Positions 14,428 through 56,156 are shown, counted from the first letter of the stretch. The stretch: 64,000 nucleotides of DNA from Bacteroidota bacterium (GCA_029907355.1 JARYLZ010000004.1:5007-69006), one strand, 5' to 3'. The notes: a model not told the origin generated them from the letters alone. A program made the numbers and translations.

Positions 14428-14439
14428 CGAGGGTCATTT

Positions 14440-14846: not shown

Positions 14847-14870
14847 ACAACTTGCCGTACTACGATAACT

Positions 14871-30895: not shown

Positions 30896-30912
30896 GTAAA
30901 GTACGAACAGCT

Positions 30913-31713: not shown

Positions 31714-31845
31714 TCGTCAATATCGGCGAAAATGCATCTTCCGATAATATATATTATGTAAAGTATGATTTTTTACTCATTGTACACCGTTTTTCATATT
31801 CCCTCTCGTAAATGTACGCAATCCTTATGCTGCGTTCGATGCTAC

Positions 31846-34800: not shown

Positions 34801-34808
34801 CGCTCGCT

Positions 34809-36502: not shown

Positions 36503-36506
36503 CGCG

Positions 36507-37805
36507 TCATTTCCCCGGGATAGTAATATTTTCTATTTCATGCCGATGGCGATAGAGATAGAGGAGAGAAACCGTCCCTGCGATGGACCATATCAGAACC
36601 GTACTCAACGCCGCCCCCAATGCACCGAGCCAGCGAATGAACAGGTAATGGGAGAAAACAGTCAAGCATAGTTGCACAAAGCTGATCATTGCTGCGGCCG
36701 AAGCCCGGCCGATCGAAAGAACGAGCGTCGTGAGAGGGTTGCCGAAAATCGTCCAGGCATATCCGATGAAGAGAATGGAAAACAGTGGGATGGAGGGGGT
36801 ATAGTTCGGGAACATAGACGGAATCATCAGGACGATGACCGCCCCGTAGATCATGGAGAGTCCGATCAACGGGAGCGTCACCTGCAACGTACGACGTACG
36901 TAATGGCGCATGTCATCCAGGCAGCGCAGAGCCATTGCTTTCGGGAAAAACACGGTCGACACGGAACCCGTAAGAACGATGAGAGGTGTGCACAAGCGCA
37001 CGGCCGCCGCATAGTGCCCAATTTCATCCGGCTGGTTGGAAAGCAAGGGAGGGAGCATGAACATGTCGATCCGCATGAGAAACATCGTAGAAAAAGACGT
37101 GAGCATCATCCATCTGCCAAACGTGACAACCTCCCTCCCGATTTCTTTCCACCCGTACGAGGCGAAATCGGGTTCTTTCCGAATGCTGACAGCGCCTGCG
37201 AGACCTACGACGAACGGCACTGTCACGTATGCCGAGTACACGAGATTCAGCGAAAACATGCCTCCCAGGATTCCCGCCACGATCACCCCGATCTTCCCGA
37301 AGCTTTCCATGACACGCAATGCAGTCAATCGGGCGAACTCTTGACGCGCTTGAAAGACTGCTTGCGAAAACTCGAAGATTCCACTCCCCACGACGCCGAC
37401 ACTGAGTAAACGGAATGGAAATGCGAGCGCAGGCATGCGGAACACGTGTACAGCCAGAATCGGCGCGGTACAGAATAGGAGAATGCCTGTACCCACGATG
37501 GCGATGATCTTCACCCTCCATGCGAATCGGAGATGCGCCCATGCACGATGTTTATCGGTTTTTTCATAGAGCGCGAAGAAACGAATGAAACTCGCATGAA
37601 GCCCCGAATCCGTGAACTGATTCACTGTGGCAAGAACCGTGATGAATACACCGTACAGAGCGTACTCCGCCGGCGTAACAAGTTTCAACAGGAGGAGCGT
37701 GATGAGAAACGTCAGGAATTTCGCAAGGACATCACCAGCGAAAACTATGCCGCTTTCACGTGCGGTCGAAGGGATCGCATTCCTGACGTGCTCAAACAAA
37801 GGCAT
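36507..37805 (-). CDS. Wzx-like oligosaccharide flippase (polysaccharide biosynthesis protein)
   Basis: 432 aa with about 12 TM segments, placed within a glycan locus. Confidence 0.7.
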   Translation of the reverse strand: MPLFEHVRNAIPSTARESGIVFAGDVLAKFLTFLITLLLLKLVTPAEYALYGVFITVLATVNQFTDSGLHASFIRFFALYEKTDKHRAWAHLRFAWRVKIIAIVGTGILLFCTAPILAVHVFRMPALAFPFRLLSVGVVGSGIFEFSQAVFQARQEFARLTALRVMESFGKIGVIVAGILGGMFSLNLVYSAYVTVPFVVGLAGAVSIRKEPDFASYGWKEIGREVVTFGRWMMLTSFSTMFLMRIDMFMLPPLLSNQPDEIGHYAAAVRLCTPLIVLTGSVSTVFFPKAMALRCLDDMRHYVRRTLQVTLPLIGLSMIYGAVIVLMIPSMFPNYTPSIPLFSILFIGYAWTIFGNPLTTLVLSIGRASAAAMISFVQLCLTVFSHYLFIRWLGALGAALSTVLIWSIAGTVSLLYLYRHRHEIENITIPGK

Positions 37806-38934
37806 CGGTCAATGCGGGGATTTGCTCATAGTTCCGGATAAGGGTGCGATAGGCTCTGATCGTCTGTTCGGCTGTCGCCGACCATGTATACCGTGCTCTG
37901 ACCCGTTCACGCAAGGGGGTCGTTGGGCGGGTGTCGGAAAGTGCCCGCATGAGTGCGTCGCGCACCGATTGAACAGATGCCGGGTCGCAATAAATGGCTT
38001 CATCCCCGAAATATTCGGATGCAGACCCATATTGCGTACATACAATTCTACAGCCGGCTGCTGCAGCTTCGAGGCTCGTGAGCCCCGGTGTTTCAAACCA
38101 GCTCGGTTGAGCGTGGATGCGTGCCGAAGCGAAGAACGGCCATGTTTCCTCCCAGGGGCGCCCCCCATAGTGATACAAGCGTACTCTGAATTTCCTGGAC
38201 TCGAACTGGCATTGGGACCAGTATGCCCTCTCGGCCATATTTACGTTGCCGAGGAGGATTAAAGGCATGTCGATTCCTTCCATTGCGCGGATCAATGTCC
38301 TTTGATTTTTCCTCCGCTCAATACGTCCGACGCAGAGGATATACTCAGCAGGGACACCGTCCGGCAGGTTCATCTCCCCATCGAGGAAACGGCAACCGTT
38401 TCGGACTATGAGCATCGGTGATTGCGTACCGAATCGTTCCCGAAGCATTTCCGCTTCGATCATGGAATTCGGGAGGATGAGGTCCGCATTCGCGAGAACG
38501 TTCGACAAGCATCTCCGGAAGTAGGGATTGTAATGAACGCTCTTCAATCTCCTTTCGAGCAGTTTCGCGATACGAGGACCGTTCAATTGTCGTGCGAGAA
38601 AGAGGATCGCTTTCTTCCACAGCGCGACAGCGCCCCCTCGTTCCTCGTAGGTTTCCATATCCCAATAAATGGGGGACAGCACAACCGGAATACCCTCTGA
38701 GCGCGCCTCACGGAGAGATGAACGATACTGGTGAACGAGTAAAAGGTTGAAAGCGTGTACCAGGTCGAATGCCTTAAGCATCGAGCGGGGGAGCGTGCAC
38801 TGTCCGTCTGAGACGAGTTCCAGACGGACTTCAACTCCCCTCTTCACCAATTCTTCCCTCGTCGCGAGGATCTGCGTTGTGTCTCCGCCCGGGTTCGTCA
38901 GGAGATTATTCCGGGCTAAGAAAAGGACCTTCAT
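37792..38934 (-). CDS. glycosyltransferase family 4
   Basis: 'MKVLFLARNNLLTNPGGDTTQI' and a GT-B C-terminal domain. Confidence 0.8.
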   Translation of the reverse strand: MKVLFLARNNLLTNPGGDTTQILATREELVKRGVEVRLELVSDGQCTLPRSMLKAFDLVHAFNLLLVHQYRSSLREARSEGIPVVLSPIYWDMETYEERGGAVALWKKAILFLARQLNGPRIAKLLERRLKSVHYNPYFRRCLSNVLANADLILPNSMIEAEMLRERFGTQSPMLIVRNGCRFLDGEMNLPDGVPAEYILCVGRIERRKNQRTLIRAMEGIDMPLILLGNVNMAERAYWSQCQFESRKFRVRLYHYGGRPWEETWPFFASARIHAQPSWFETPGLTSLEAAAAGCRIVCTQYGSASEYFGDEAIYCDPASVQSVRDALMRALSDTRPTTPLRERVRARYTWSATAEQTIRAYRTLIRNYEQIPALTDAFV

Positions 38935-38955
38935 GGTCGGAACGCTCCTCGATTC

Positions 38956-40011
38956 TCACGCCATGGCATGGAGATAGGCGGCAATATGTTCACCGGCAAC
39001 CCTCTCCCACGAGAGGTTTCGGACGAAGGCAGATGCACGACGGATACGTTCTTTCGTGGCAAGAATATCGGGTTTCACGAGAAGGTTCGTCAAGAAATTC
39101 AGGAGTTCCTCTCCGCTGGTAAAGTAGAATGTATGTTCCCTGATAGCGGGGAAAGATTCGAAATAGCGTCTCTTGATTTCCGACAAGGCAGGGACGATAA
39201 CCGGCCGGCCGGCTCGGAAGGCATCGAGAATTCCGAGGTAACCCGTCCCAATGACATAGTTAGCGGCGGCATAGAAGGGACCGATTTCCGTGGTTGGGGG
39301 ATGACGTGTAATGTTCAGGGATCCGCCAGCCAGAGCCTTGAGGTCATGAACCAGTTGTCCACAACCCACGAGAACGAGATGCACCGGCACACCAGCAACG
39401 TTTGCGGCCTTCGCGAGACATTCGGTGGTCTCCTTGATGCCAGTGTCTTCCGCCCATCGCCCGATAAACACGTAAGTATGATGATGCTCCCATGGAGGGG
39501 CCGTGTTGTCATGGATCGGCGCTCCGAGGTACACATGGTCAATCCGCTGGCCGTACAAGGCACGAACGTACTCCCCTACACCGAACGTAACATTCATGCA
39601 CCGGGCGGTGAAACGTCGAAGCACCACATCAACATAGCGCACGGGCCACGAATCGAAGCCATGAAACGTTGTAGCGAATACGGGGTGGCGAAAGAAAAGA
39701 CGAAATGGGAGAAACCAGTGGAAGAAGGTGCCATAATCATGAAAATGGAGAACGTCCGCTGCCGCAAAAACCCGCCGATGCTTCCAGATCCAGAACCAGC
39801 GCAATAAACGGGTGAAAGGCCGAACTCTTCTGACCCCGAACCGGAGGACGCGTACACCGTCTGGAGCATTCAGTTCCTTGCCGTTGTTCGACTCCGTGAT
39901 GATGGTGACCTCATGACCGCCTTTCGTCATTTCCGACGCAAGCGCATGGACGGCCAACTCCACCCCTCCGATGTCCGGGAGATAGCGATCTGTCAGGAAA
40001 ACGATCTGCAT
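38956..40011 (-). CDS. glycosyltransferase (GT4-like)
   Basis: 'MQIVFLTDRYLPDIGGVELAVHAL' N-terminal GT-B fold. Confidence 0.7.
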   Translation of the reverse strand: MQIVFLTDRYLPDIGGVELAVHALASEMTKGGHEVTIITESNNGKELNAPDGVRVLRFGVRRVRPFTRLLRWFWIWKHRRVFAAADVLHFHDYGTFFHWFLPFRLFFRHPVFATTFHGFDSWPVRYVDVVLRRFTARCMNVTFGVGEYVRALYGQRIDHVYLGAPIHDNTAPPWEHHHTYVFIGRWAEDTGIKETTECLAKAANVAGVPVHLVLVGCGQLVHDLKALAGGSLNITRHPPTTEIGPFYAAANYVIGTGYLGILDAFRAGRPVIVPALSEIKRRYFESFPAIREHTFYFTSGEELLNFLTNLLVKPDILATKERIRRASAFVRNLSWERVAGEHIAAYLHAMA

Positions 40012-40033
40012 CGACCCTGGACCTTCGTCTGCA

Positions 40034-41227
40034 TCAGTGCCTGTTCTTGATGTTCACCTTCATGTAGAATTCATATCGGGGCGGTTCGGCGGTTTCGCAG
40101 GTATAGCCGTAATCCTTGACGAACACACCGTCTAAAAACTGATCCGTCGGGTCCCAGGGTTTATCGAAATCCGCTCCGGGTTTGTAAAGGAAATCGATCG
40201 CCTTTACTGCGTTCCATTTCACCTCCCATGATTCCCGATTGTCGCGGTGGAGATCGATGAAATGGGTAATGTGGTCGGAGGAATTGTATTCCGGGAAACC
40301 GCTATAGAGTTCGACGTTTCCGCAAGATGTGTTTTCAACATGACGGATTGCGAGAGAACGGACGAGTTTATGCAAGGCGCTCCCGTACTCACCATCCGAG
40401 CCGTGAGTCAAGACAATTGTCGGGCACGGTTCCTCAATCCTCCTCGCGAGAGCGCGTTCGATAGCAACATGGAGAAAGGAGGTCTCCCCGAAACTCAGTG
40501 CGAAATCCGTCCCGGGAACTTCCCCGATCTGGACGATTCTTTTTCGCTCGACAACGGTGTCGACGGGTAACACGGAGATGTCGATCCCGAGAATCGCCGC
40601 GTATCTCTTGATGGTTTCGAGCTTATTGATCCCTGCACGATCGGTCACGATGCGGAGATGCCTGTCTTTGAAATAACCGGCGCTGTTATACCCTCCAAGG
40701 AGATCCGATGGTTGTTCCGAAGTTCCCGCCGAACCATCCGCACCGTTGGAGACGAGAATCACCTTGACATTCCATCCCTTTCGTGCGGCATAGGCGAGCA
40801 AACCTCCGGCCAAGAGAACCTCATCGTCCGGATGTGCAAAAACGCCGAGAAGTATTTTCCCTTTCCCGCTATCCTGAAGGATACGCGCGGCGAGATCGTG
40901 AAATCCTCTTTGTAGTAGATCCCGTGGTGACTTCAGATACCCCTCATGGTCATCTTCGTCGAAGACGGAGAGGAAATAATCAATCTTGTTCTTCTCACCG
41001 GGAACGCTGTTGTACATGTAATCGTGTTTGTAGACGACCGGGTGATCGACGCCGGGCCATTCATCGAAATCCCATGTTCCATGGGATATACCTCGAGGGA
41101 TATCGTAACCGCGCCGGAACATGGAAGGATCGGCTTTGAACGGAATCTCCGTTTGCGAGAGAGCGATCTTGTTGGCCAGGACCGATAAGGCGGCAACACC
41201 GAGAACGAACCATGCCTCTATTCGCAT
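40034..41227 (-). CDS. exported PIG-L/LmbE-family deacetylase with an N-terminal extension
   Basis: Signal peptide plus 'ILLGVFAHPDDEVLLAGGLL'. Confidence 0.7.
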   Translation of the reverse strand: MRIEAWFVLGVAALSVLANKIALSQTEIPFKADPSMFRRGYDIPRGISHGTWDFDEWPGVDHPVVYKHDYMYNSVPGEKNKIDYFLSVFDEDDHEGYLKSPRDLLQRGFHDLAARILQDSGKGKILLGVFAHPDDEVLLAGGLLAYAARKGWNVKVILVSNGADGSAGTSEQPSDLLGGYNSAGYFKDRHLRIVTDRAGINKLETIKRYAAILGIDISVLPVDTVVERKRIVQIGEVPGTDFALSFGETSFLHVAIERALARRIEEPCPTIVLTHGSDGEYGSALHKLVRSLAIRHVENTSCGNVELYSGFPEYNSSDHITHFIDLHRDNRESWEVKWNAVKAIDFLYKPGADFDKPWDPTDQFLDGVFVKDYGYTCETAEPPRYEFYMKVNIKNRH

Positions 41228-41235
41228 TGGAACTC

Positions 41236-42282
41236 CTATTCCATAATGAATGGGATCACGCGATCTTTACGCCCCCAAGTAATCCGGAGCAAGTACATCC
41301 CGCGTGGCATTGCCGGGCGTTCCGTTGCGAGGAAAACGGGAACGAGGTGTCGACCCGGTACAGCTGCCATGTACTCGAACACCTTCAAGGAACGACCGAA
41401 CTCGTCATAAACCTCCAGTTTCAGACATCCAGCCTCCGTGCTCGAAAAATCAACGAGGAGATACCGGGATTCTGATCTGCCGAATGGAATGGGGTAGACT
41501 TCCGGATCGGTCAAACCATGAGTCGGGTTTTCCCCGAAGTATTCCGCTTTCATAATGATCTCTACAAGCCGTTCTGCGATAGCAAGATGGCCTTGAGCCG
41601 TCGGATGGATACCATCCCTCCCGATGCAGGACGAATCAGTAAAAGAGTAAGGGATTTCGAGAAATCGTCCCGAGCATTCCATCGCCGTTCGGCAGATCGC
41701 TTCCTGGTAACGTGATAGATGGAAACCCGTACCGCCATACCGTTCGTAGAGGGAAGGCGGCGAGAAAAAGGAGAAACGATACTCGTTCAGGGGCGGAAGC
41801 CCGAGAAAAATCGGTACAGCACCGATCCCCTGTATCTTCCGGCATATGAGTCTGAGATTCGAGATAAAACGTTCAAGCGGCACACGGGGTGAGGTTGTGA
41901 ATCCGTGTATGTATAGATCATTCGTACCAAAAGAGACAACTACGATAGAGGGGCCAAAAGTCAGCACATCTCTGTCGATACGCAGGAGAGCATCATCCGT
42001 CGTCTCCCCTGCTCGGCCGAGGTTCCGGACCGTATAACAATGACCTTCTGCACGAAACATCGAGTCGCAACGTGAGGGATAGGCGAGATCCGGCCTGAGA
42101 ACTCCATCGATCCACCCCTCTGTGATTGAATCCCCGAAAAAAAGAATGAGTCCCTGCGGGTCGCTGCGAGGTCCCGTTCCCGCCGATATCAGGACCGGCG
42201 AAAAGAGAAGAGCGAAGATGAAGCGGTTAACAGGGAAAGGCACCCTCGGCTGCAAGGATGCAAACTGTCGTTTCATGGGCAA
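41236..42282 (-). CDS. SGNH/GDSL esterase with a T9SS C-terminal sorting domain
   Basis: 'LILFFGDSITEGW' block I. The C-terminal 'LKLEVYDEFGRSLKVFE...GMYLLRIT...' resembles a Por-secretion tail. Confidence 0.65.
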   Translation of the reverse strand: MPMKRQFASLQPRVPFPVNRFIFALLFSPVLISAGTGPRSDPQGLILFFGDSITEGWIDGVLRPDLAYPSRCDSMFRAEGHCYTVRNLGRAGETTDDALLRIDRDVLTFGPSIVVVSFGTNDLYIHGFTTSPRVPLERFISNLRLICRKIQGIGAVPIFLGLPPLNEYRFSFFSPPSLYERYGGTGFHLSRYQEAICRTAMECSGRFLEIPYSFTDSSCIGRDGIHPTAQGHLAIAERLVEIIMKAEYFGENPTHGLTDPEVYPIPFGRSESRYLLVDFSSTEAGCLKLEVYDEFGRSLKVFEYMAAVPGRHLVPVFLATERPAMPRGMYLLRITWGRKDRVIPFIME

Positions 42283-42348: not shown

Positions 42349-45300
42349 TCAACCGGTCTCCAGTCTTTCCGGTGTTGGAGCCTGATGTTTCTCATGCATT
42401 AGCGCGATATGATCATGCATACCGATCGGCAAATGGAAACGATCCGTACCCTCAAGCGAGTGCTTCAACCGTTCAGCATATTCGTGCATTCTTCGTTCGA
42501 ACTCCTCCCGCGTGCGCTCCCTCTCGAGGAAAATCTGTTGATATCTTGCGAGGAAGTATCCGATCGTCTCGACACGGATTTTGATGCTCCCGACCGGTTT
42601 GTTCTCATCGATGTCTTTAAATGAAAAATACGGTGTATGAGAACACTCGATGATTTCCTGGACAAGAGAGTAAATCGGTGCATCGTGACCGCATCGAAAA
42701 CTGGAAAGCTCGAGAGCGACGAGATTCGGATGGCGTGCGACAAACTTCGCCGCCCACACCTTGCGCGAGGTGTTCTCACTGTATGAATTTTTCCAGACAT
42801 CGGAAATATCCATTGGGTGTGAAATTCTCCCCGCCCGAATATCCGGACCGAAAAGCTTTTCGAGGATGTCATGGTCTGTAGGGAGCGAGTCCTGAGAAAG
42901 AACCGGATAGCCGAGTTTCCTGAACTCATTAGGGATCCCGTGGTTGACACCGGGGTCGGCGTGATAGGGACGTCCGAGAACGACGACACCGATCCGCCTG
43001 TTATGTTCGAGTTCCTCGAGAATCTGTCTTCCCTGGGCGCGGAGAGTCTCTTGGAATCGTCGTAAGGCGGCGTAGCCTTCTTCCACCGCGCGGAGGTTCT
43101 CATCACGCCTGAGTTTCAACCGTCGCCCGAAAGCGGTGTACAACTGTTCAGCTGCAAGAGCGGGATCATTCAACCGAATGAAGGGGTTGATATATTCCAC
43201 GCCCGCTTTTCGGAACAGATCCTCTTCCTTGATGTATGCGGCTTTGACGGACTCAGGTGTCCCTGTCGCCGTCGGGCAGGCTTTCGATCCGACAACATGG
43301 AAGAGATCCGTCGGAAAATCATCGATGATGGGGAAGAAAAGCCACTCGAAATGGGTCAACCGGAGTTTCTTCGTAAGGAGATTGTGAACATGTGCGAGCG
43401 CCACTTTCGAGGGGAAACAGGGATCGATGCTCCCACGCTTCACCCCTTCTTTATAGAGTTCTTCCGATGTGAAATCCGAAAAGACGAAGTTCTGAAACGG
43501 CACACCGAGGCTTTCGAAATATGCGGTGAAGAAAGGCATTGTGGAGTATAGGTTCAGGACTCGTGGCACGGCTATTCGAATAGAGGAACGAAGGTGTGAA
43601 ACACCACCATTCCCCACCCGGAACATCCGAGAGAAGAGCCCCTTTGAATTGTTGGAATCGGTGTTTGCTTTCGCTGGCGACCATGCAAGTTGTGCTTGAG
43701 TTTCGAGAGTGCTCGGAAATTGTTTTTTCACATCGGATATATTTTTCGCAATCATGCGCATATCGTCGATATCTTCTACCGTTCCTTTCTCGCAGCTCGC
43801 AATGATGAGTCGGCTTGCACCGGGTTCTAAGGGTATCTTCGAATGCCGATGCCGGAGACGTTCTTCTTCCGATTCGAAACGGGCAGAGCGCAGTAATTCA
43901 GGTCCTGATTTATATGGGAAGATATTCGATTTCTCTGTGAATTGTTCGTTGGTTTGAACATCGATGAAAGTCCTCATACACTTGTTTTTACAGAAATTGC
44001 AGCGCGTTTCCTCGTTCCGCAATGTTCTGAACCGGATTCGTGCAACGGCGTCGAGTCCGATAAAGGTTGTAGATCTGCCTTCTGAGTAAAGACGAGATGC
44101 TTCGACGGCACAACCAATAGCTCCTGCTTCACCGGTATGTTCATGGACGATAATGCGTGGTTCCATGTTCTTGGATCGGAAACGCGATCGAATAAAGTCC
44201 ACCTGTGCTTTGACAGCTGCCAGATTATGTTGCGTTCCGCCTTGAAGGACGAAGGTTTTCCCGAGTTTTGTCAGATTTGGAATTTGAGAAACATATAGCC
44301 AGATATTTTTCGGAAGAACGATGGCAAGACCTGCAAGTATCTCTTGCGGGGACCACCCTTTTCTTTGAAAATCGACTATATCGGACTGAAGAAAAACGGC
44401 ACATCCATAACCGAATTCAGGTGCGACTTTCGCTTGAAAAGCAATATCGGCGTATTCATCTACAGAGAACCCGAATGATTCAGCTGTACTTTGTAAAAAA
44501 TATCCATTTCCAGCGGAACACTGTGTATTTAACTTGAAATCAACGACTCTATTATCTTTTAAAATAATGAGTTTGATATCTTGACCTCCCACATCACATA
44601 TCACATCAACATTCTTATAAAAATGGAGTGCGGCCTGTGTATGTGCGACGGTTTCGACGAGAGCGATATCGGCACCGATGGAATTCTTCAAAATATCTTT
44701 CGCGTACCCGGTGGTACCGACCGCAAGAATATCGAGATCGGCCCCCTGTTCGAGAACCTGTCGATGAAGTTTCTTGATGATATCTTTGGTATCTTCTATC
44801 GGATTCCCATACGACAATTGGTAAGCTTTGAATGCGACACGCCCTTCCGTGTCGAGGAGAACTCCTTTCGTCGACGTCGACCCACCATCTATCCCGAGGA
44901 AAGCCTGGAAAACTGAGCCAGGTGTCAATTTTCTCGGCATGAAGGGTTTGACGGAAAATTCCTCTCTAAATGCTTCGAGTTCCTTTTCGTCCCGCACGAG
45001 AGGGGGAAGAGCTTTTCTGAGCTTATCGCGATGGTTACCTGTTGAGAGGATGCGTTCCAGTTCATTGATGCCACGATACGGCACAGGTATTTCATGGTTT
45101 TCCCGACCGAATTCCACCGCACCAATGGCTGCGTAATACTGACCTGACTCGGGAACGATGATGCAGTCTTCTGGGCATCTGCCTTCAGGGAGAGGGAATT
45201 CTCTTTCCTCCCAGAGATTTTTGATATTCCAACGCCAGCATTCCACCATTCCCCGGATGAAGGTGTTCGGTCCGCCAAGAAGCAAAACATCCGGTCTGAG

Positions 45301-45957
45301 TGTATGGCCGCGTGTCAAGACGGAGAGATTCTGCAAAACAATCGACTCAAAGAGAGACGCGATGAGTTCATCCGCCGGGACACCTTGCTTTTGCAAACCA
45401 TTGATATCGGTTTCAGCAAAAACGCCGCATTTGCCAGCAACAGGATGAATTTTCACTCCATTATATCGAGCCTCGCTCAGAGCCCCAGGGGGAAGGCGAA
45501 GTTTGGCGTTTATCTTGTCGATCACAGCTCCGGTCCCGCCTGCGCATTTATCGTTCATGGAAAAGATTTTCTTCTTTCTTCTCGTTATCGGGTCTTCTTT
45601 GAAGATGATGATTTTGGCGTCTTGTCCGCCGAGTTCGATCACCGACCCGGCCGTCGGCCATAATTTTTCGACCGCGACCGTGACGGCATTCACTTCTTGA
45701 ACAAATTGTGCGCCAATGAATGGAACAATAGAGTTTCCACCCGATCCTGTGACATAGACCGCGAAGTGTTTGGGGGAATACGAAAACTCCACATGAATCG
45801 CCCGTAAGAATTCCAGCACTTTTTCCTGTTGCCGTGTTTCGTGACGTTGATAATCGCGCCAGAGTATTTCCCCTGTCCGGTTCTCCACAACGACCGCCTT
45901 GACGGTCGTACTGCCGACATCGAGTCCAATGGAATACATGGTTGTCGCGTCGATCAT
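42349..45957 (-). CDS. fused CoA-substrate-specific enzyme activase (two BadF/BadG/BcrA/BcrD-type ATPase domains) plus DUF2229/HgdB-like domain
   Basis: Two ASKHA ATPase modules, 'YSIGLDVGSTTVKAVV' and 'FLGIDGGSTSTKGVLL'. A Cys cluster 'CNFCKNKC'. A C-terminal 'VVLGRPYH' DUF2229-type domain. The start is taken at 'MIDATT' (45957), forming an ATGA overlap with the upstream stop; track ORF 42349..45999 extends this with 14 extra codons. Confidence 0.75.
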   Translation of the reverse strand: MIDATTMYSIGLDVGSTTVKAVVVENRTGEILWRDYQRHETRQQEKVLEFLRAIHVEFSYSPKHFAVYVTGSGGNSIVPFIGAQFVQEVNAVTVAVEKLWPTAGSVIELGGQDAKIIIFKEDPITRRKKKIFSMNDKCAGGTGAVIDKINAKLRLPPGALSEARYNGVKIHPVAGKCGVFAETDINGLQKQGVPADELIASLFESIVLQNLSVLTRGHTLRPDVLLLGGPNTFIRGMVECWRWNIKNLWEEREFPLPEGRCPEDCIIVPESGQYYAAIGAVEFGRENHEIPVPYRGINELERILSTGNHRDKLRKALPPLVRDEKELEAFREEFSVKPFMPRKLTPGSVFQAFLGIDGGSTSTKGVLLDTEGRVAFKAYQLSYGNPIEDTKDIIKKLHRQVLEQGADLDILAVGTTGYAKDILKNSIGADIALVETVAHTQAALHFYKNVDVICDVGGQDIKLIILKDNRVVDFKLNTQCSAGNGYFLQSTAESFGFSVDEYADIAFQAKVAPEFGYGCAVFLQSDIVDFQRKGWSPQEILAGLAIVLPKNIWLYVSQIPNLTKLGKTFVLQGGTQHNLAAVKAQVDFIRSRFRSKNMEPRIIVHEHTGEAGAIGCAVEASRLYSEGRSTTFIGLDAVARIRFRTLRNEETRCNFCKNKCMRTFIDVQTNEQFTEKSNIFPYKSGPELLRSARFESEEERLRHRHSKIPLEPGASRLIIASCEKGTVEDIDDMRMIAKNISDVKKQFPSTLETQAQLAWSPAKANTDSNNSKGLFSRMFRVGNGGVSHLRSSIRIAVPRVLNLYSTMPFFTAYFESLGVPFQNFVFSDFTSEELYKEGVKRGSIDPCFPSKVALAHVHNLLTKKLRLTHFEWLFFPIIDDFPTDLFHVVGSKACPTATGTPESVKAAYIKEEDLFRKAGVEYINPFIRLNDPALAAEQLYTAFGRRLKLRRDENLRAVEEGYAALRRFQETLRAQGRQILEELEHNRRIGVVVLGRPYHADPGVNHGIPNEFRKLGYPVLSQDSLPTDHDILEKLFGPDIRAGRISHPMDISDVWKNSYSENTSRKVWAAKFVARHPNLVALELSSFRCGHDAPIYSLVQEIIECSHTPYFSFKDIDENKPVGSIKIRVETIGYFLARYQQIFLERERTREEFERRMHEYAERLKHSLEGTDRFHLPIGMHDHIALMHEKHQAPTPERLETG

Positions 45958-47828
45958 ACACCGTCCTTCACACCTAGCCTCTTCTCTTTCCTCGCGCATG
46001 AGAGAGCGAGACGTGGTGCAATTCCTACTAAGCCGTTTCTCCTCGGGAGGGGCTGGAACGGATCACGGAAGCTCTTATCCGCTTTTACGATATGTCGTAA
46101 ATCGTCTTCCGACATTCCGAGGCTGTGTAGGGTTTGTCGCATCTCCTCGCGGGCAACAGTCTTAGCTTCGCCGAGCGCCATCTGCACCCTGCTGTGGGCA
46201 TTGATCTCGCCTTCCCCCGATGTTTCGATTGGGAGAAAAAGAATATCGTGGAAATGGGTGGTAACCGCAGACTGGACACCGTCCGATTGCGTACTCGGCA
46301 TGCATCCGAATGGTTTCAAAGATAAAACCATGTGACAGAGTCTCTTTCGGGTAAAGTATATGGTCTTTGCTACCTCGAGATGTCCTTCCCCGCCTTCGAT
46401 TCTCGTGTGAAAATACGGGTGAGCGAGCTTCTGCAATTCCCCTTGGGGCGTAAGGGGAAATGGGACAAAGTCCAGAGCGCGACGCATGCGATTGTATTCC
46501 CGGGTCAAGAGAAATTCGGCAATACGGTACACCGTGATTTTCATCATCGAGGAAAGATGCGCCCTGGTGATCGTGTAAAGACGTGAGGGGAATTTCGTTT
46601 TCACCCAACGGCTTTTCTTTCGCATGTCATGCGCTTCCTGCCGTGCCAGGTAGAGAAGATAGAGAAGCCAGTTCGTAACCGGATCGACGAGCACCTGAGC
46701 CCCTTCACTCTCGAGGAAGCGAAACATCTCGAAATTCCCATCCCCCTCTGTTGTCTGCGCCCAGAATTCGCCCGTCAATTTCACGACCGGTCGTACCCGT
46801 GTCCGGTCGACCTCGATACGCGCAAAACGTTCGCGGCACCAGCGCATTCCCTTGACAAGTCTTCTCCCGAAAAGGTACTCACCCCATCTCAACGCCGAGA
46901 TCACGAAATCGACCACATGGGGAACATCTTGCGGGCGTTGTATGACGCGAAGCGATGCTTTTCGTTTCCAAGAAAACAATATCGAGGCCATATGTTCGAT
47001 ACATTCACGGAGGACCTCATCCGTCGCCCCGTGGTCTACTTCGTAAGGACGAATTTGATAGGCGGTGTCATTGAGCACATCGGCAATCATGATGGCGTGA
47101 AGGATGCCGAGCGTGAAATCCCGGTTAATGACCAATCCTGCGTCGACGCTCGACTGCTCGAGACCACCCGTTTGTTGAAGAATAAGGACACGGAAACCTT
47201 CGTACCCGGAATTGCGGAGGGCAAGGCGATACTCGGCTTCGTACATACCAAAACGGCAAGGACCGCATGCTCCCGCCGTGAAGAAGACATATTGATCGAT
47301 GATTTCCTGTTTGCCCATCCCCTTCGCTTCCAGGGAGTTCAAGTAGTCGATAAGATTCCCGATTGTGAAATACGCGGGATTGCAGTGTCCGTTATTGCAG
47401 TATTCACGCCCTGTCTGGTACGACTTGATAGTGGGCGTGGGAAGGAATTCGGCACGGTATCCAAGTCCCTGGAGCACAGCTTGGATCAACCGTTCATGCT
47501 TCCATGTCAATCCGCCGAAGAGCACCGTTGTAAAAGGACGCTGAGCACGGGTGAAGGGGCGTTCGACAGGCCGTATTGCATGCGTCACATCCAGGTTTGC
47601 TAGACCGAGTTCCCGCTTCAGACGATGGCACTCTTTCGCGATGAGAACATCGAAGTGGCTGGGCTCTTCTTTCTTTGTGCGGTGGAACCCGTTCCCATTG
47701 ACGCGATGCCCTGACGACCGTTTATGCGAGGGAGGATCAATCGGATACATACGGGTTTCCAAGCATATTTTTTCAATAAGATTCTCTACCGATTCGGGGA
47801 AGGGTCTCTGAAACGCGTGTCGATACAT
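45954..47828 (-). CDS. 2-hydroxyacyl-CoA dehydratase family (HgdB/FldC-like, 'activase-related') protein
   Basis: 'GACGPCRFG' and 'LKPFGCMP' Cys motifs typical of the dehydratase component family. Length 624 aa. Confidence 0.6.
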   Translation of the reverse strand: MYRHAFQRPFPESVENLIEKICLETRMYPIDPPSHKRSSGHRVNGNGFHRTKKEEPSHFDVLIAKECHRLKRELGLANLDVTHAIRPVERPFTRAQRPFTTVLFGGLTWKHERLIQAVLQGLGYRAEFLPTPTIKSYQTGREYCNNGHCNPAYFTIGNLIDYLNSLEAKGMGKQEIIDQYVFFTAGACGPCRFGMYEAEYRLALRNSGYEGFRVLILQQTGGLEQSSVDAGLVINRDFTLGILHAIMIADVLNDTAYQIRPYEVDHGATDEVLRECIEHMASILFSWKRKASLRVIQRPQDVPHVVDFVISALRWGEYLFGRRLVKGMRWCRERFARIEVDRTRVRPVVKLTGEFWAQTTEGDGNFEMFRFLESEGAQVLVDPVTNWLLYLLYLARQEAHDMRKKSRWVKTKFPSRLYTITRAHLSSMMKITVYRIAEFLLTREYNRMRRALDFVPFPLTPQGELQKLAHPYFHTRIEGGEGHLEVAKTIYFTRKRLCHMVLSLKPFGCMPSTQSDGVQSAVTTHFHDILFLPIETSGEGEINAHSRVQMALGEAKTVAREEMRQTLHSLGMSEDDLRHIVKADKSFRDPFQPLPRRNGLVGIAPRLALSCARKEKRLGVKDGV

Positions 47829-48063: not shown

Positions 48064-51003
48064 TTATTTCAGCAAGAGCATCGTCCCCATCGTCTCGACA
48101 CCTTCCAGGGAGAGGACGGATCGATAGACCCCGCTCGGAAGATCTCTCGCGTTCCATGCTGGTCGGTACCAGCCGGGGTTTTGAACTTCATCGACCAGGA
48201 TGGCAACGGTTTGGCCGAGGGTATTTTCCACACGCAACTGTACATGCCCACGACGGTGGAGGTAATAGGGGATGACCGTCACGGGACGGAAGGGATTCGG
48301 GTAGTTCTTGTACAGCGTGAATCCTAATGCCTCGGGTACAAGATCGGTGGGGCTCGTCATCCGACCTTCGCCGGAAACCGTCAGACGCGTTGGGGATGTC
48401 GCAGCATTGCTGAGTATGGAGATCGTCGCATTGACAGCACCGATCGTCGCAGGGGCGAAACGCAGCGTGTCGATGAACATCCTGCCCGGCGGGATGGTTA
48501 CGGAAACAGGTCGCGCCGAGTAGGCGGGATTATCCGAGACGATATCGGCGATCCGAAGCGTGTCTGTGCGATGGTTCGTAATGATGAACACCGTGTCTTT
48601 GTATTCGCCGATCGACACGTTCCCGAAGTTGATCGCCTCGGGGGCGATCGACACGTCCGTTTCACCAATCCCCGATACAGGGATCCGATCCGGCGAAGTC
48701 GTGGAGTTGCTATACATGGTGAGCTCTCCGGTATTCGGACCGAGAATGGACGGTGAGAAGCGGACAGTCAACGCGTATGTCGAAACAGGACTCACGAGGA
48801 AGCGATCGGGGATGGCGCGGAACGCGATGTTGTCGGAAAGGATTTCCGATACGCGCAAAGTGTCCGTGCCGTTGTTTTTGATCTGGATGACTGTATCGCG
48901 GGACGTCCCGACCGGGACTCTCCCAAATGCGATATTCGCCGGTGTCAGGAGAATATCCACTTCCCCAAAACCTATCCCCGTCACGTACAGCGTGTCTTTC
49001 GAAGTCGGCGCATTGCTCGTTATCGTCAAACGAGCGTTCACATTACCCGGGACTCGCGGTGCGAAGGTGACGGTTTGGCGGAACGTCCCACCGGGGAGAA
49101 TGTTGACGACGGGGTTCGAGACGGTGAAGGCGGTGTTCGACGACTTGATCTCCGTGATTTTCAACGTATCGAGACCGGCGTTTGAAAACGTGATGACGGT
49201 ATCTTTTCTGAGGCCGAGTTTCACATACCCGAATGCGATGAAGCGCTGTTCGAGCTCTAGAGCAGCGGTACCTGTCCCTTCGCCCGTGACGGTAATCGTA
49301 TCGGGGGAAGTCCAAGAGTCGCTTTCGAGAATGATATGACCGATGGCTGGTCCGACAGCGCTTGGAGTGAAGCGAATGCTGTCGTTCTGGCTCGCGCCGG
49401 AGGCAATGACCATAGAAGTCGGGCGAGGCGTGAATGCAGGGTTATCGGACCTGATCGAGTGGATATGCAGGGTGTCTCCCCCCGTGTTTGTGAGGAGAAC
49501 GACACGGTCACGGCGTGAACCGACGCCAACCACACCGAAACTGACGGACTTGGAAGAGAGGGTCAGAGCGGGCTGTGATTTCGGGTAGCTCCCATCTGCG
49601 AGAACCTTGAACGCGTAGATATTGCCGTTTGTATAATCCGCTCTGTAATCTTCCCACGCGAACATTCCGCCTCCGTTCCCGTCGGCAACAGCGATGGGCA
49701 TGTTCTGCATATTCTTCGCTCCACACACGAGAACACCGTTCGGCTGCCACAGCGGATTACCGTTCCGATCAAGTCGTTGCGCGTAGATATCTGCATTGAG
49801 ATTTCCGTCGCGCCTGTCCTCCCACACGATGATGACGCCTCCCATCCCATCTCGGATGACATACGGCGTGAACTGGTTGCCGGGTGCCGTGCATACGGGG
49901 ACCCCGTCTTTCGTCCAGATTTCTTTCCCATCCTTATCGAGGAATTGCGCGTAAATATCGCACGTGCTGCCGCCCCGATAATCTTCCCATGCTACGACGG
50001 CGCAACCATTATCCATTCCCACAATGGAAGGGTGATCCGAGGCGGCGTTGTGTGAGTGGATTTTCGATCCCGGCCACATCGCATTGCCATCGGCATCGAG
50101 GCGTTGGGTATAGATGGCGACCGTGCTCGTACGGTAGTCCGCCCATGCCGACACGACACCGTGCAGACCGTCGTAATCGATGAAGGGGTACCCCTGGCTG
50201 CCGGCGACTGTGCACAGCCCGACCCCATTGCCTCGCCAGTACAGGTTCCCTTTCGGCCCAACGCGCTGGCAATAGAGATCGTACTGTCCGCTCGGACCTC
50301 CGAGGAACCACTGCCATGCCACGAAAGCGCCGTTCGCACCGTCCGTACAGATCGATGGTGAGTATTGGTACATGCCGCTCTGCGGCACGATGGGTGCGAC
50401 GTATCCTGCGCCGCCCCATGGGAAATTCCCCAGCGAGTCGACACGGACAAGCATGATTTGGTTGTCGAAGTTCCCACCAGGGACGTTGTCCATGAACGCG
50501 ACGTACACCCCGCCGAGACTGTCGCTACAGATGACAGGGTCGCTCTGGTATTTTTCCTTGATGATCGGCGGGGTCAGATCGATTCCATCGGCCGTCCAGA
50601 GCATCTGCCCCGTTGAATCGATGTGCTGCATGTACACATCGTTGTGCTGAAACCTGTTGTCTTTCCAGACGATGAACGCGCCGCCTTTTTCATCACCCGT
50701 GATCTGGGGTTTGTTCTGCGAACCCGGCATCGTACAGACAGGTGCCCCGTTGACCCCCCAACGGATATTTCCATTCGCATCGACATGTTGGGCGAAGACC
50801 TCCGTGATGTTCTGGAGGAACCGTTCGTCTTCCCAGGTAAGAATCATACCGCCTCGCCCGTCACTGATAGCGCGGACGAGTCGTTGGTTTCTCTGTTCCG
50901 TGCATATCGGGTTGTTGGCGTAAGGGTTGGACGACCATTGCGCCGTGGATTGAACGGCCATGATCAGGGCGAACGCACAGGAGATCGTGGCAATACGAGA
51001 CAT
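48064..51003 (-). CDS. T9SS-secreted repeat protein, adhesin-like
   Basis: Signal peptide. About nine tandem ~52-aa repeats of the form 'DG.GG.hh.W.D.R......DIYAQ.hD..GN.hW..NGV.VC.A.G.Q'. About five ~100-aa Ig-like domains 'FG.V.VG.SR...V.I.N.G.D.L.I..I.SDN.AF' (choice-of-anchor-D-like). Canonical T9SS CTD 'NYPNPF...LPSGVY'. Confidence 0.8.
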   Translation of the reverse strand: MSRIATISCAFALIMAVQSTAQWSSNPYANNPICTEQRNQRLVRAISDGRGGMILTWEDERFLQNITEVFAQHVDANGNIRWGVNGAPVCTMPGSQNKPQITGDEKGGAFIVWKDNRFQHNDVYMQHIDSTGQMLWTADGIDLTPPIIKEKYQSDPVICSDSLGGVYVAFMDNVPGGNFDNQIMLVRVDSLGNFPWGGAGYVAPIVPQSGMYQYSPSICTDGANGAFVAWQWFLGGPSGQYDLYCQRVGPKGNLYWRGNGVGLCTVAGSQGYPFIDYDGLHGVVSAWADYRTSTVAIYTQRLDADGNAMWPGSKIHSHNAASDHPSIVGMDNGCAVVAWEDYRGGSTCDIYAQFLDKDGKEIWTKDGVPVCTAPGNQFTPYVIRDGMGGVIIVWEDRRDGNLNADIYAQRLDRNGNPLWQPNGVLVCGAKNMQNMPIAVADGNGGGMFAWEDYRADYTNGNIYAFKVLADGSYPKSQPALTLSSKSVSFGVVGVGSRRDRVVLLTNTGGDTLHIHSIRSDNPAFTPRPTSMVIASGASQNDSIRFTPSAVGPAIGHIILESDSWTSPDTITVTGEGTGTAALELEQRFIAFGYVKLGLRKDTVITFSNAGLDTLKITEIKSSNTAFTVSNPVVNILPGGTFRQTVTFAPRVPGNVNARLTITSNAPTSKDTLYVTGIGFGEVDILLTPANIAFGRVPVGTSRDTVIQIKNNGTDTLRVSEILSDNIAFRAIPDRFLVSPVSTYALTVRFSPSILGPNTGELTMYSNSTTSPDRIPVSGIGETDVSIAPEAINFGNVSIGEYKDTVFIITNHRTDTLRIADIVSDNPAYSARPVSVTIPPGRMFIDTLRFAPATIGAVNATISILSNAATSPTRLTVSGEGRMTSPTDLVPEALGFTLYKNYPNPFRPVTVIPYYLHRRGHVQLRVENTLGQTVAILVDEVQNPGWYRPAWNARDLPSGVYRSVLSLEGVETMGTMLLLK

Positions 51004-51165
51004 GGAAGCTCCTGAAATGGAAGTGATGGGATAATCCTATGGTTCGAATACGTATGCTCTTAGGAGATGTGCCTCAACCCGAATAAGTGCGGTGAGCGTA
51101 TTCTCCACTCGATTTCATTTTGAATGATGAAAAAATGTATAACCAAAACTACGATTTCTCCAATA

Positions 51166-51189
51166 GAAAAAAGCGGATCCATCCACCGC
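51166..51189 (-). terminator. weak intrinsic terminator downstream of the YihY-family gene
   Basis: The minus strand reads GCGG-tggatggat-CCGC followed by TTTTTT. Confidence 0.3.
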
Positions 51190-51236
51190 AAATAGAACTC
51201 AAGAGGGGATATTTCTGCAGTGACGACGAAGCCATC

Positions 51237-52268
51237 TTATCGAAACGTATTCCCTCCCCTTTCGGCATTGCACTCGTGAGATTCCACGTTCGACTCGATT
51301 CCCAGAGATCGAACAACATTGCGCATACTTTCCTGGGTGAAAAGTTTCCTCAGCGATCTTCTTTCCATTGCCATCTGGCCTATTTCCGCCGCGAGGAGGA
51401 TCGTCACACTCGAATAGTACACCCAGACGGCCGTTGCGACAATGACGGCGTACGGGCCGTAGATTTTTCCCATCGACCAGAGGTTGGACGCGTAGTATGA
51501 GAAAAGCGCTTTGGCAACGGCCCAGAGCACGGCGGCCACGGCACTCGAGAGAGCGACGACACGCACGGGGAGACGGCGGTCCGGGATCAGAAGAAAAATG
51601 ACGCAGAACAGGAAAAAATTCACGAGAGTGGATGACACGTGGATGAAAGTGCCTTGAAGGAACCAGTGTTGGAAATACTCCCCCGCCAACTGGGCGGCGA
51701 CCCCCTTGACGAGCGTCAACCCGTAACTGAGCGTCGTGATCAGAACCAGCGATATGCCGACGAGAGAGAGGAGCGCGAGATCCTTGATCTTCGAAAAAAC
51801 GATACTCCTCGTATCCCTCACGTTGAAAATGCGGTTGAGAACGGTTCGCATCGTGGCGAAGAGAGCGCTCGACGTCCACGCCAGTCCGATGATCCCGACC
51901 ACGCCGGCAATATGAGAGCCGCGCACGAAATCCAAGATGAGTGTAAGAACGCGTGAGCGGATATATTCCCGCTCATACGGGAACAGGCGAAGAGAATCGA
52001 GATACCCGTCGATGGTCCGCATCGCTGCTGCGGAATCGAGGTACAGCCCCAATATGTAAAAGAGCACCAGCACGAGAGGGATGAAACACAGCATGGAGTT
52101 GAACGCGATGGCTGCACCGGATAGGAATATGTGGTTGTCTTCCATCCGTTCCATCAAGCGGTTGAGGTACATCCATACCGCTCGGATGCCGGTGCGCGAT
52201 ACCAGGTGCCGCATGAACGTGGGGATGCAGGCCTCCAGGCGTTTCATCCCTGTTCGCGCTTTTTTCAT
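51237..52268 (-). CDS. YihY/BrkB-family membrane protein
   Basis: '[21 protein letters not shown]' N-terminal signature and six TM segments. Confidence 0.8.
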
Positions 52269-54490
52269 GCGCGTACTAAGAGACGTTCAAGGGCCTTGAA
52301 GTAGAGGTCCGCGAGTTCCAAGATTGAAATCTTGATGTCTTCGTTCATGCGCAACTCATCTCCGCCGACCACCCCCGCCTTGAGAATATCGACATTGTGC
52401 TTTGCGGCGATGCGGAAAAGCGCGTTATCGTCCTGCGGGGCACAGCTGACGATAATTCGCGATTGCGACTCGCCGAAGTACAGGGCATCCCTCCGGAACG
52501 GCACGGGTACCCGTAATACCGCCCCGATCGGTCGCGGGCCTGTGATACAGCACTCCGCGAACGCGACGGCGAGTCCGCCCTCTGAAACGTCGTGCGCGGA
52601 ATGAAGGACCCTTTCCCGGATCATCTCTCGAACCGCCGATTGCACACGAATTTCCTCTTGGATATCGAAATACGGGGCATCGCCTGCAACGACACCGTGT
52701 ACATGCGAAAGGTATTCGCTCCCGCCGATATCCTCGCGGGTTTGTCCCAGGAGGAAGACGGAATCACCCGGAGAGGTGAAAAAGGATGTGGTGATGAGAT
52801 CGATATCCTCGATGAGACCCAGCATACCGATAACCGGCGTCGGATATACGGCACCTTCGGGATCCTCATTATAGAAACTCACGTTCCCCCCAGTCACCGG
52901 CGTCCCGAGCGCGCGGCATGCTTCACCCATTCCCCGGACGGCTTCGGCGAACTGGTAAAAGATCTCCGGCTTGTATGGGTTCCCGAAATTCAAGCAGTTC
53001 GTGATCGCAAGAGGTTCTGCCCCGGTACAGACGACGTTCCGCGCCGCCTCAGCCACAGCGATCATCGTACCTTTCCGGGGATTCAGGTACACGTACCGGC
53101 CGTTGCAGTCGGTCGAGACGGCGAGCGCTTTCCGTGTCCCTTTGATCCTGATGACGGCGGCGTCTCCTCCAGGCCCTTGAACGGTGTTTGTCCTGACACT
53201 CGTATCGTATTGCTCATAAGCCCATTTTTTCGAAGCGATGTTCGGCGCAGAGATCAGGAGACGTAGGATATATGTCGTGTCGCGGGGTACGGGTATGGAA
53301 GAAGGGTGGAAAGCCCCCGTTACATCGAGGTAAGTCGGACGCTGTTCTTCTCTCGTGTAAACGGGTGCACCACCACCGAGGACGAAGCTTTCGGCGGGGG
53401 CGTGTGCAACGATCTCCCCGCCGTGAGATACCGTTACGTAACCGTCATCCGTTACTTCACCGATAATGACGGCGTGGAGGTCCCACTTTTTAAAAATCTC
53501 CCGAACACGGTCCTCGCATCCTTTCCTGACGACCACGAGCATGCGCTCTTGGGATTCCGAGAGCATGATTTCATAGGCGCTCATGTTCTCTTCCCTCACC
53601 GGTACGCGGTCCAGGTCAATGCGCATACCTGCTTCGCCGCGGGCCGACATTTCCGTCGCCGAACAGGTGATTCCCGCCGCTCCCATATCTTGGATTCCGA
53701 TGACAAGGCCCTCCCGAATGATCTCCAGCGTCGCTTCGAGGAGGAGCTTTTCCGTGAACGGGTCGCCGACTTGGACGGAGGGACGCTTCGATTCCGAATC
53801 CTCGGAAAGTTCGACGGAGGCGAACGTGGCTCCGTGTATCCCGTCACGACCCGTCGAAGACCCGACGATCATGACAGGATTCCCCTTCCCTGACGCTGTC
53901 GCCGAGGCGATGCGCCCCTGCTGGACGATACCCACAGCCATTGCATTGACGAGGGGATTCCCCTGGTAGGACCTATCGAAGAATAGTTCCCCCGCGACGG
54001 TAGGAACGCCGAAACAGTTCCCGTAATGGCCGATCCCGCTGACAACGCCACGGACAAGGTACCGTACACGCGGTTGGGACGGATCGCCGAAACGGAGAGA
54101 GTCGCAAGCGGCAATCGGGCGTGCCCCCATCGTGAACACATCCCGCAGGATACCACCCACGCCGGTCGCGGCTCCTTGAAAGGGTTCGACAGCCGATGGA
54201 TGGTTATGACTCTCGATTTTGAAGGCGACGGCTTGCCCGTCCCCGATTTCGACGAGACCTGCGTTCTCCTGCCCCGCCTCGACAAGCAGGCGCCCGCCTG
54301 AGCGCGGCAATGTTTTCAGGAGCGCGATGGAATTCTTGTAACTGCAGTGTTCACTCCACATCACGCTGTACATGCCGAGTTCCGTGTACGTCGGCGTACG
54401 CCCGAGAATCTCGAGTATGCGAGAATACTCCTCGTCGGAGAGCCCGAGTTCTCGTGCGAGTTCCGGGGTAACCTCCGGATCTTTCTTCAT
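52265..54490 (-). CDS. purL: phosphoribosylformylglycinamidine synthase subunit PurL
   Basis: '[16 protein letters not shown]' plus duplicated AIRS/AIRS_C domains. Length 741 aa. Confidence 0.9.
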
Positions 54491-56144: not shown

Positions 56145-56156
56145 AACCGATCTCCT

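Follow-up and report, generated by a model that had tools for sequence, protein, structure and literature searches.

Our analysis concerns a stretch of 64,000 nucleotides from a Bacteroidota bacterium (GCA_029907355.1, JARYLZ010000004.1:5007-69006), which as a whole is called the window here, and in particular two adjacent minus-strand genes between positions 42349 and 47828. The downstream gene, A, encodes a large protein that joins two ATPase modules (Act1 and Act2), a cysteine-rich linker and a DUF2229 region (Red1), an arrangement referred to as the BBD architecture. The upstream gene, R, encodes a predicted catalytic subunit of the PlsR/Red2 type. The features of the pair are listed below, with A residues counted from the start MIDATT.

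42349..45957, minus strand: A gene, 1202 aa, BBD architecture (Act1-Act2-Cys linker-Red1), from Pfam and NCBIfam
45954..47828, minus strand: R gene, predicted PlsR/Red2-type catalytic subunit, maximal open reading frame (ORF) of 624 aa, from alignment, AlphaFold2 (AF2) and hhalign
45954..45957, minus strand: ATGA overlap of the R stop and the A start, from direct reading of the sequence
44953..45957, minus strand: Act1 ATPase module, aa ~1-335, with GLDVGSTTVK, ELGGQDAK and LLLGGPN, and C138 and C177; called from the alignment
44104..44898, minus strand: Act2 ATPase module, aa 354-618, with GIDGGSTSTK, DVGGQDIK and LQGGTQ, and C480 and C519; from the best Pfam stretch and matches in the Protein Data Bank (PDB)
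43792..44001, minus strand: Cys-rich linker, aa 653-722, C653-x2-C656-x3-C660 ... C722 (CEKG); from conservation
42553..43578, minus strand: Red1, DUF2229 region, aa ~794-1135, with C847 (DPCFP), C894 (ACPT) and C1089 (FxCGHD); from PF09989 and conservation

The two proteins and their conserved cysteines

The maximal large ORF runs over 42349-45999 on the minus strand, and the start at MIDATT reduces it to 42349-45957. With this start, the ATG of the A gene (45957-45955) overlaps the TGA of the R gene (45956-45954), as an earlier note on this DNA had read it, and a GAAGGA lies ~7 nt upstream. The NCBI model of the source contig has the 1202-aa start too (P0121, 100% identity and coverage), and an identical 4-nt overlap joins the R and A genes in the closest syntenic relative, the Ignavibacteriae metagenome-assembled genome (MAG) L088. 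The earlier note gave the R protein 624 aa and two Cys motifs, GACGPCRFG and KPFGCMP; both motifs are present, but the length is probably 598 aa, as M27 (47750) is the more likely start than M1, given that the homologs span 590-610 aa. The public R model (P0001, 544 aa) begins at V81 and loses a conserved N-terminal helix with the invariant E66 and R69. Its label, 'activator of (R)-2-hydroxyglutaryl-CoA dehydratase', is wrong in kind, since the R protein is without an ATPase domain.

Pfam finds two BcrAD_BadFG (PF01869) stretches in the A protein (E 5e-77) and DUF2229 (PF09989) at aa 794-1025 (E 3e-50), which bears out the earlier description of a ~1200-aa protein with two ATPase modules and a DUF2229 domain. 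NCBIfam adds only a generic activase domain (TIGR00241, 204.6 bits against a cutoff of 125.4), and the sequence matches of Act2 in the PDB are 1hux, 4eht, 9gai and 7yyl_E. Eleven cysteines are invariant in 27 homologs (alignment A2), namely C138, C177, C480, C519, C653, C656, C660, C722, C847, C894 and C1089, together with the phosphate-1, phosphate-2 and adenosine motifs of both Act1 and Act2. These cysteines and ATPase motifs are also kept, with conservative substitutions, in 12/12 proteins of three clades. The two cysteines of each ATPase module (C138/C177 and C480/C519) sit in C-A-G-G-T-G and C-x-V-F motifs that are kept in all sequences, and their positions are those that bridge a [4Fe-4S] cluster in HgdC/HadI. 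The linker motif CNFCKNKC at aa 653-660 is the CxxCxxxC-like cluster pointed out earlier; with C722 it gives four cysteines, which are also kept in the PlsA-type clade and in the clade of a paralog found at locus L084. We propose these four as a putative binding site, either of zinc or of a further Fe-S cluster. AF2 modelled the A protein with a pLDDT of 77.4, and the ATPase parts of the model match MbdQ/P, HadI and HgdC with TM-scores of 0.84-0.88 (target-normalised 0.79-0.88 when DCCP-R, the reductase of the double-cubane cluster protein DCCP, is counted with them).

The R protein has no match in Pfam or NCBIfam and no significant sequence match to any PDB chain, DCCP chains included. Four of its cysteines are invariant in a 28-sequence alignment: C149 (CNP), C188 and C191 (GACGPCRFG) and C509 (KPFGCMP). 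While C149, C191 and C509 are universal, C188 (GACGPC) occurs throughout the window clade and is missing from most other sequences; GACGPC, GEFWAQTTEGDGNF and GGEGHLEV are signatures of this clade. The AF2 model of R (pLDDT 73.8, pTM 0.75) finds its best PDB fold matches in DCCP (7yyl, 6eno), MbdO/N and BzdN/O, with a probability of 1.00 and TM-scores of only 0.3-0.47, and this agrees with the HgdB-like, dehydratase-fold partner that had been expected. hhalign places the R profile on the PlsR/Red2 part of the Listeria PlsA-type fusion, residues 988-1402 (98.7% probability, E 1.6e-16, 401 columns), and on the PlsR-like ORF that follows the BBD paralog in L084 (99.4% probability, E 5e-21). R and the PlsR-type sequences have the motifs C-x-P...T-x-G, G-x-C-R, RPYE, GE and PF-x-C in common. 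Therefore, the pair has all the parts, Act1-Act2-Red1 plus Red2, that make up PlsA/PlsR and Ger.

The earlier note had named unconserved Cys ligands or degenerate ATPase motifs as the findings that would count against it. Both the ligands (11 cysteines in A, 4 in R) and the phosphate and adenosine motifs are invariant, thus neither objection applies. Judged by its sequence and predicted fold, the pair is a member of the benzoyl-CoA reductase / 2-hydroxyacyl-CoA dehydratase superfamily ('archerase', BCR/HAD): it has BcrAD/BadFG modules with intact motifs, cysteines at the bridging positions, and a catalytic fold with a three-Cys site, three cysteines being universally conserved in R and three in Red1.

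Linkage and clade placement

The counts of loci given here are drawn from 85 distinct related loci. R and A are found together in 74 of them, and R lies upstream of A in 73 of the 74: the gap is at most 250 nt in 63, and a gene, often of the glyoxalase family, is inserted in 10. The single locus with A before R is L095; Brevibacillus, which stands outside the count, has this order too. The two genes also occur naturally fused, both as R-A (P0272, 1623 aa) and as A-R (P0285, 1579 aa). At L095, one protein joins an R-type subunit to a GltD-like NAD(P)H oxidoreductase (Fer4_20 and Pyr_redox_2) and a 2x[4Fe-4S] ferredoxin domain (L095:3436-7251, P0275), directly downstream of a BBD gene that is 44% identical to the window A. 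The fused oxidoreductase and ferredoxin may be a built-in electron donor. Such a fusion points to net electron consumption, which fits a reductase better than a redox-neutral dehydratase.

The gene inserted between R and A in ten soil/peat loci (L017, L024, L029, L030, L041, L044, L047, L048, L055 and L061; for example L055:12459-12953) encodes a 164-aa protein of the glyoxalase/bleomycin-resistance family. At L055, no BBD gene lies within 10 kb downstream of R, and a B12-radical-SAM-like ORF and a small protein are found there instead. At L084, a third-clade BBD gene (1062 aa) followed by the PlsR-like ORF (up to 453 aa; L084:3285-7771, minus strand) is divergent from a window-type partner gene (L084:8049-9842, plus strand), so that paralogous systems stand side by side.

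Over 1031 aligned columns, homologs in MAGs of Ignavibacteriae, Bryobacteraceae, Alphaproteobacteria and Marinimicrobia share 62-72% identity with the window A and 66-80% among themselves; between the window A and the Brevibacillus protein the value is 50%. The identity of the window A to the L084 paralog is 26-30%. The PlsA-type references, taken from chromosomes labelled as plasmids in PLSDB, have an internal identity of 38-49%. They also show the BBD architecture, as a single gene in Listeria monocytogenes (1475 aa), as a split pair in the order A then R in Fusobacterium (975 + 404 aa), and in fused forms in Haliovirga and Collinsella. On these comparisons, the window pair is a separate, strongly conserved clade of the PlsA/PlsR-Ger kind.

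Searched with a profile, 1.84 billion cluster representatives gave 2279 matches at E <= 1e-3, of which 507 reach E <= 1e-30. In the other searches, the matches with a named source were MAGs of Acidobacteriota (Bryobacteraceae, Blastocatellia), Ignavibacteria/Bacteroidota, Marinimicrobia, Latescibacteria and Alphaproteobacteria, as well as Brevibacillus. The family had been described as widespread in anaerobes, and this does not hold for the clade. A genome-contig search with a single R sequence as the query gave one locus (L005). The BBD protein of L015 (1188 aa) is 59% identical to the window A by BLASTP and has matches at 79-96% identity, among them many from Bryobacteraceae MAGs and one from a 'Ca. 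Solibacter usitatus' MAG; of its named matches, the closest are in Bryobacteraceae MAGs. The homologs carry the public labels 'activator of (R)-2-hydroxyglutaryl-CoA dehydratase' or 'CoA activase', and labels of the first kind are misleading. The only homolog found in a cultured organism is that of Brevibacillus laterosporus B9 (NZ_CP011076.1, a barely annotated 1.38-Mb 'plasmid' record), with identities of 47% and 38% (L086:9-7684 and 13770-17760).

Proposed function of the pair and its alternatives

Two of the systems closest in kind act on lipids. PlsA/PlsR (CPE1195/CPE1194 in Clostridium perfringens; a single gene in Listeria, Enterococcus and Lactococcus) is a plasmalogen synthase that converts glycerolipid esters to ethers, according to Jackson 2021 as related in PMC12838417 and PMC9702350. 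It has the same two BcrAD/BadFG modules, CxxCxxxC...C site, DUF2229 and PlsR-type domain; every proposed Cys ligand and ATPase motif is kept in the window pair, and both split and fused forms exist. The window-clade R differs in its length (~590-600 aa against ~400-420 aa), with N- and C-terminal extensions, the extra Cys of GACGPC and motifs of its own, and in being invisible to Pfam. Its gene lies upstream, whereas Fusobacterium has A then R; a small protein of 84-95 aa often follows the pair, and the clade occurs mostly outside strict anaerobes. Ger, the glycerol ester reductase (Thermotoga maritima Tmari_0479/AGL49404; Desulfatibacillum alkenivorans SHJ90043), likewise turns glycerolipid esters into ethers, and its BBD core, which the window pair shares, is reported to be conserved in all alkyl-ether producers (PMC13159169). 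Ger is a single fused protein with short C-terminal PF09989 and PF06050 matches, whereas the window Red2 is a separate gene product without a Pfam match. The products of both systems are vinyl or alkyl ethers (PMC12838417, PMC13159169). The earlier statement that the fused family has no characterised substrate is thus outdated for the family.

A role together with membrane-spanning lipid synthases has been proposed for Ger in the synthesis of lipids such as brGDGTs, the branched glycerol dialkyl glycerol tetraethers. These are among the most used terrestrial proxies of past temperature and pH, and their source organisms and ether-forming enzyme are described as unresolved (PMC10087280, PMC13274423). 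Solibacter usitatus makes iso-C15 mono- and diethers as well as brGDGTs, without ElbD (Halamka et al., PMC10087280). Its only listed BLAST matches to PlsA/PlsR are Acid_0922 (1188 aa, 30.2% to PlsA) and Acid_0921 (589 aa, 20.9% to PlsR), and it is a published hypothesis that these two carry out the ether-forming step of brGDGT synthesis (PMC10087280). The window pair matches these two genes (589 aa, then 1188 aa) in gene order and sizes. We match the window clade to the Ellin6076 proteins Acid_0921/Acid_0922 by size, order, the published BLAST values and close MAG relatives. In the 'Ca. Solibacter usitatus' MAG, the R gene lies upstream of the BBD gene, and a PAP2 lipid phosphatase precedes the pair.

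The genes that recur around the pair are few. Neighbourhood clustering of 80 metagenome loci returned mostly housekeeping genes (accA, dnaE) or alternative-frame ORFs; one soil/peat group, ~50% identical to the window R, dominates this set, so that it is not a broad sample. Apart from housekeeping genes, just five neighbours recur across the distinct loci: a Tes homolog, a second radical SAM gene, the 84-95-aa protein, the glyoxalase-family gene and an LMF1-family membrane protein. The Tes homolog, a radical SAM protein of 620-710 aa with PF23545 and PF04055, matches GDGT-MAS (PDB 7tol, E 4e-62) and the NCBIfam Tes model NF045702 (318 bits, below its 450-bit equivalog cutoff). It adjoins the pair upstream, downstream or divergently in 6/85 distinct loci (L001:14084-16210, L003:4784-6865, L090:12358-14229, L091:12383-14470, L006:~8465-10255 and L065:6477-8537, minus strand), often with the second radical SAM gene of 331-335 aa (L003:6977-7972, L091:14588-15595; also L023 and L065). 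The 84-95-aa protein, which has no Pfam or NCBIfam match, is encoded just downstream of A in 23 loci and in 16/38 distinct loci with at least 3 kb of downstream sequence (for example L088:11597-11884, L089:11622-11900, L090:11613-11894, L091:11682-11936 and L001:13667-13921). Its motif is MFEIYRE..Y.R.YRVVYFTEL.EHN..EI..ALAGEHF.DGF, and in the syntenic L088 its gene separates A from the GDSL gene. Perhaps it serves as a third subunit, or else as a chaperone. The LMF1-family protein (~460 aa, LMF1 and LMF1_C, lipase maturation factor family) is encoded ~1.5 kb upstream of R on the opposite strand in ten loci (L015, L022, L027, L035, L039, L040, L054, L056, L058 and L059; for example L054:369-1754). 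An extra B12-binding radical SAM gene lies at 3784-5532 of L090.

With the BBD architecture and an adjacent PlsR-type domain both in place, we consider the pair very probably an ATP-driven Fe-S reductase of the PlsA/PlsR-Ger kind. The reduction of membrane lipid esters to ethers is the best-supported substrate inference, on which we put about an even chance; the lipid is favoured because of the Tes adjacency, the gene and lipid inventory of S. usitatus, the relatives of L015 in Bryobacteraceae, and the PAP2 phosphatase beside the MAG pair. Taken together, our somewhat preferred reading is a self-contained reductase of this type which most likely reduces a glycerolipid acyl ester to a vinyl or alkyl ether. 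We infer the Fe-S clusters, the electron path and the substrate in the following scheme from sequence comparison. Act1 and Act2 would form an internal pseudo-dimer in which C138/C177 and C480/C519 bind a single [4Fe-4S] cluster that bridges the two, and a cellular reductant would reduce this cluster. ATP hydrolysis would then drive a very-low-potential electron, possibly via the CxxCxxxC...C site, into a catalytic pair made of the DUF2229 domain Red1 with its three cysteines and the PlsR-like Red2 with three universal cysteines and one clade-specific cysteine. There, the ester-linked acyl chain of a membrane glycerolipid would be converted to a vinyl or alkyl ether.

Several observations weigh against this reading. 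The window A is only 30-33% identical to the PlsA-type clade, and a neighbour-joining tree sets the two apart, the window clade falling outside the PlsA-type clade with the Listeria fusion; thus, a different substrate is possible, and for this clade the earlier statement about the lack of a characterised substrate still holds. The tree and identity comparison took in the Listeria fusion and left out C. perfringens PlsA/PlsR and the Ger proteins of T. maritima and D. alkenivorans. An hhalign comparison of the R profile with the DUF2229 region found no similarity (probability 0.2), and BLASTP of R against the C-terminal half of A gave nothing significant, so that a paralogy of Red1 and Red2 is proposed on structural grounds; its sole sequence-level hint comes from the PlsR-like ORF of L084, whose match to PF09989 is weak and partial. 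Tes is adjacent in only 5/32 loci with enough flank. A tblastn search of the 64-kb window found neither Tes nor the 84-95-aa protein, and no other radical SAM gene was seen among the ORFs scanned, which were not all of the ORFs. Cultured ether-producing Acidobacteria are reported to be without a Ger homolog (PMC13159169), and S. usitatus makes its ethers at 21% O2 (PMC10087280), yet enzymes of this superfamily are oxygen-sensitive. Finally, the pair stands at the head of a cluster with GDSL acylhydrolase, PIG-L, glycosyltransferase and flippase genes, all in one orientation, both in the window and in L088, and in Brevibacillus laterosporus it follows genes of the kind that make ribosomally synthesised and post-translationally modified peptides (RiPPs): two nitroreductase-family genes, PqqD/M50 and a split LanB dehydratase.

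These two neighbourhoods, together with the ~30% identity to the PlsA-type clade and the signatures of its own, are what would suggest that the same machine acts on a non-lipid carbonyl or ester, either a glycan or glycolipid intermediate of the GDSL/PIG-L/GT4 cluster or a peptide natural product. We regard this as unlikely. The neighbours vary by lineage while the pair stays 62-80% identical across phyla, which argues for one common cellular substrate over lineage-specific products, and the recurrent neighbours are restricted to the five named above. In Brevibacillus, a gap of 287 nt separates the RiPP-type genes from the pair, and an Exo_endo_phos gene, dagK and MGDG synthase lie downstream. 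A different machine, a DCCP-like double-cubane reductase with a fused reductase partner that acts on acetylene-, azide- or hydrazine-like small molecules, is quite improbable. The [8Fe-9S] cluster of DCCP needs six cysteines within one subunit (~420 aa), and DCCP-R is a separate protein, whereas R has only four invariant cysteines, its sequence profiles place it with PlsR, and the ATPase modules share one chain with a catalytic domain. DCCP does share the logic of ATP-driven low-potential electron transfer, gives R its best fold matches (7yyl, 7yzm and 6eno, E 5e-4 to 2e-3, probability 1.00), and is represented by DCCP-R among the sequence and fold matches of the ATPase modules; the TM-scores of R, at 0.30-0.43, are low, and the subunits of benzoyl-CoA reductases come close to them. 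DCCP was rejected because R has too few cysteines for a double cubane, the ATPase is fused, and R has no sequence match to DCCP chains.

Least probable of all, in our view, is that the pair serves fermentation or aromatic degradation, be it as a classical 2-hydroxyacyl-CoA dehydratase plus activator or as a class I aryl-CoA reductase. The public names would have it so, the ATPase modules match HgdC, HadI and BcrA/D models, and class I benzoyl-CoA reductases (Mbd, Bzd) share the electron transfer logic and are among the best fold matches of both R and the ATPase modules. Neither protein matches PF06050 (HGD-D) at a Pfam E <= 0.01, and in place of an activator that is a free homodimer, the pair has a double module joined to a catalytic domain. 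The scanned neighbours are envelope and housekeeping genes without CoA-transferase, acyl-CoA or aromatic-pathway genes, and the closest homologs of full architecture are of the PlsA/PlsR type. A classical enzyme of either kind was rejected for want of PF06050 and for the wrong context.

Returning to the ether-forming reductase, we suggest tentatively that, in Acidobacteria and other non-fermentative bacteria, the missing enzyme that makes the ether bonds of brGDGTs and alkyl-ether lipids is the reductase of this clade, acting with bacterial Tes homologs. If this is true, the system would consist of an R subunit with an extra Cys, a BBD subunit and, in many genomes, the 84-95-aa accessory protein, and its clade-specific features would explain how it works in oxygen-exposed cells, how it reduces its substrate fully to alkyl ethers, or both. 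The source organism, Bacteroidota/Ignavibacteria-like, would then count as a so far unrecognised producer of ether lipids. The pair is a defined and highly conserved candidate of two (sometimes three) genes; it occurs in Bryobacteraceae, to which the brGDGT producer Solibacter usitatus belongs, and sometimes lies beside Tes. In a 2026 preprint, MAGs of Acidobacteriota, Latescibacterota and Chloroflexota gave BBD-only 'ger' matches, and its authors took the second reduction domain to be absent. If these matches are of the window clade, the upstream Pfam-invisible gene would supply that domain. Since the R subunit is both invisible to Pfam and upstream, domain-based surveys could take such loci for 'BBD-only', and an R-subunit profile would improve metagenomic surveys of ether-lipid potential.

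Neighbouring genes

The genes around the pair in the window are as follows.

29756-42282 and 48064-54490, minus strand: flanks of the pair in conserved order, by synteny with L088
36507-37805, minus strand: Wzx-type flippase (Pfam)
37792-38934, minus strand: GT1 (Pfam)
38956-40011, minus strand: GT4 (Pfam)
40034-41227, minus strand: PIG-L deacetylase (Pfam)
41236-42282, minus strand: GDSL acylhydrolase (Pfam)
54678-57434, minus strand: 488-aa GDSL-family lipase and an adjoining FadL/TodX outer-membrane channel for long-chain fatty acids or hydrophobic compounds, 7 kb upstream of the pair
5291-6757: lipase-like gene
6809-7759: nitronate monooxygenase (NMO)-family gene (PF03060)
22714-24351: L-aspartate oxidase (NadB)

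The genes at 36507..42282 downstream of A are co-oriented and 8-66 nt apart or overlapping, and we treat them as context, not as part of the core. A promoter and terminator scan at the locus gave nothing above chance, with no terminator-like site between the A and GDSL genes; the pair is probably co-transcribed with the downstream genes from GDSL to the flippase. The order common to the window and L088 is PurL, BrkB, a 979-aa Ig-like repeat protein (HYDIN/ASH/DUF1573 domains), the pair, GDSL, PIG-L, GT4, GT1, flippase and acetyltransferase.

The earlier note had called the placement of the pair unusual beside oxidative enzymes. The L-aspartate oxidase and NMO-family genes do exist in the window, but neither indicates an aerobic lifestyle. 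NadB can also use fumarate when oxygen is absent, and PF03060 includes the enoyl-ACP reductase FabK, which makes the argument weak. Beyond the conserved gene order downstream of the pair, the window carries a second PIG-L, a methyltransferase and another GT4, and its G+C falls to 0.45-0.48 around 28-32 kb.

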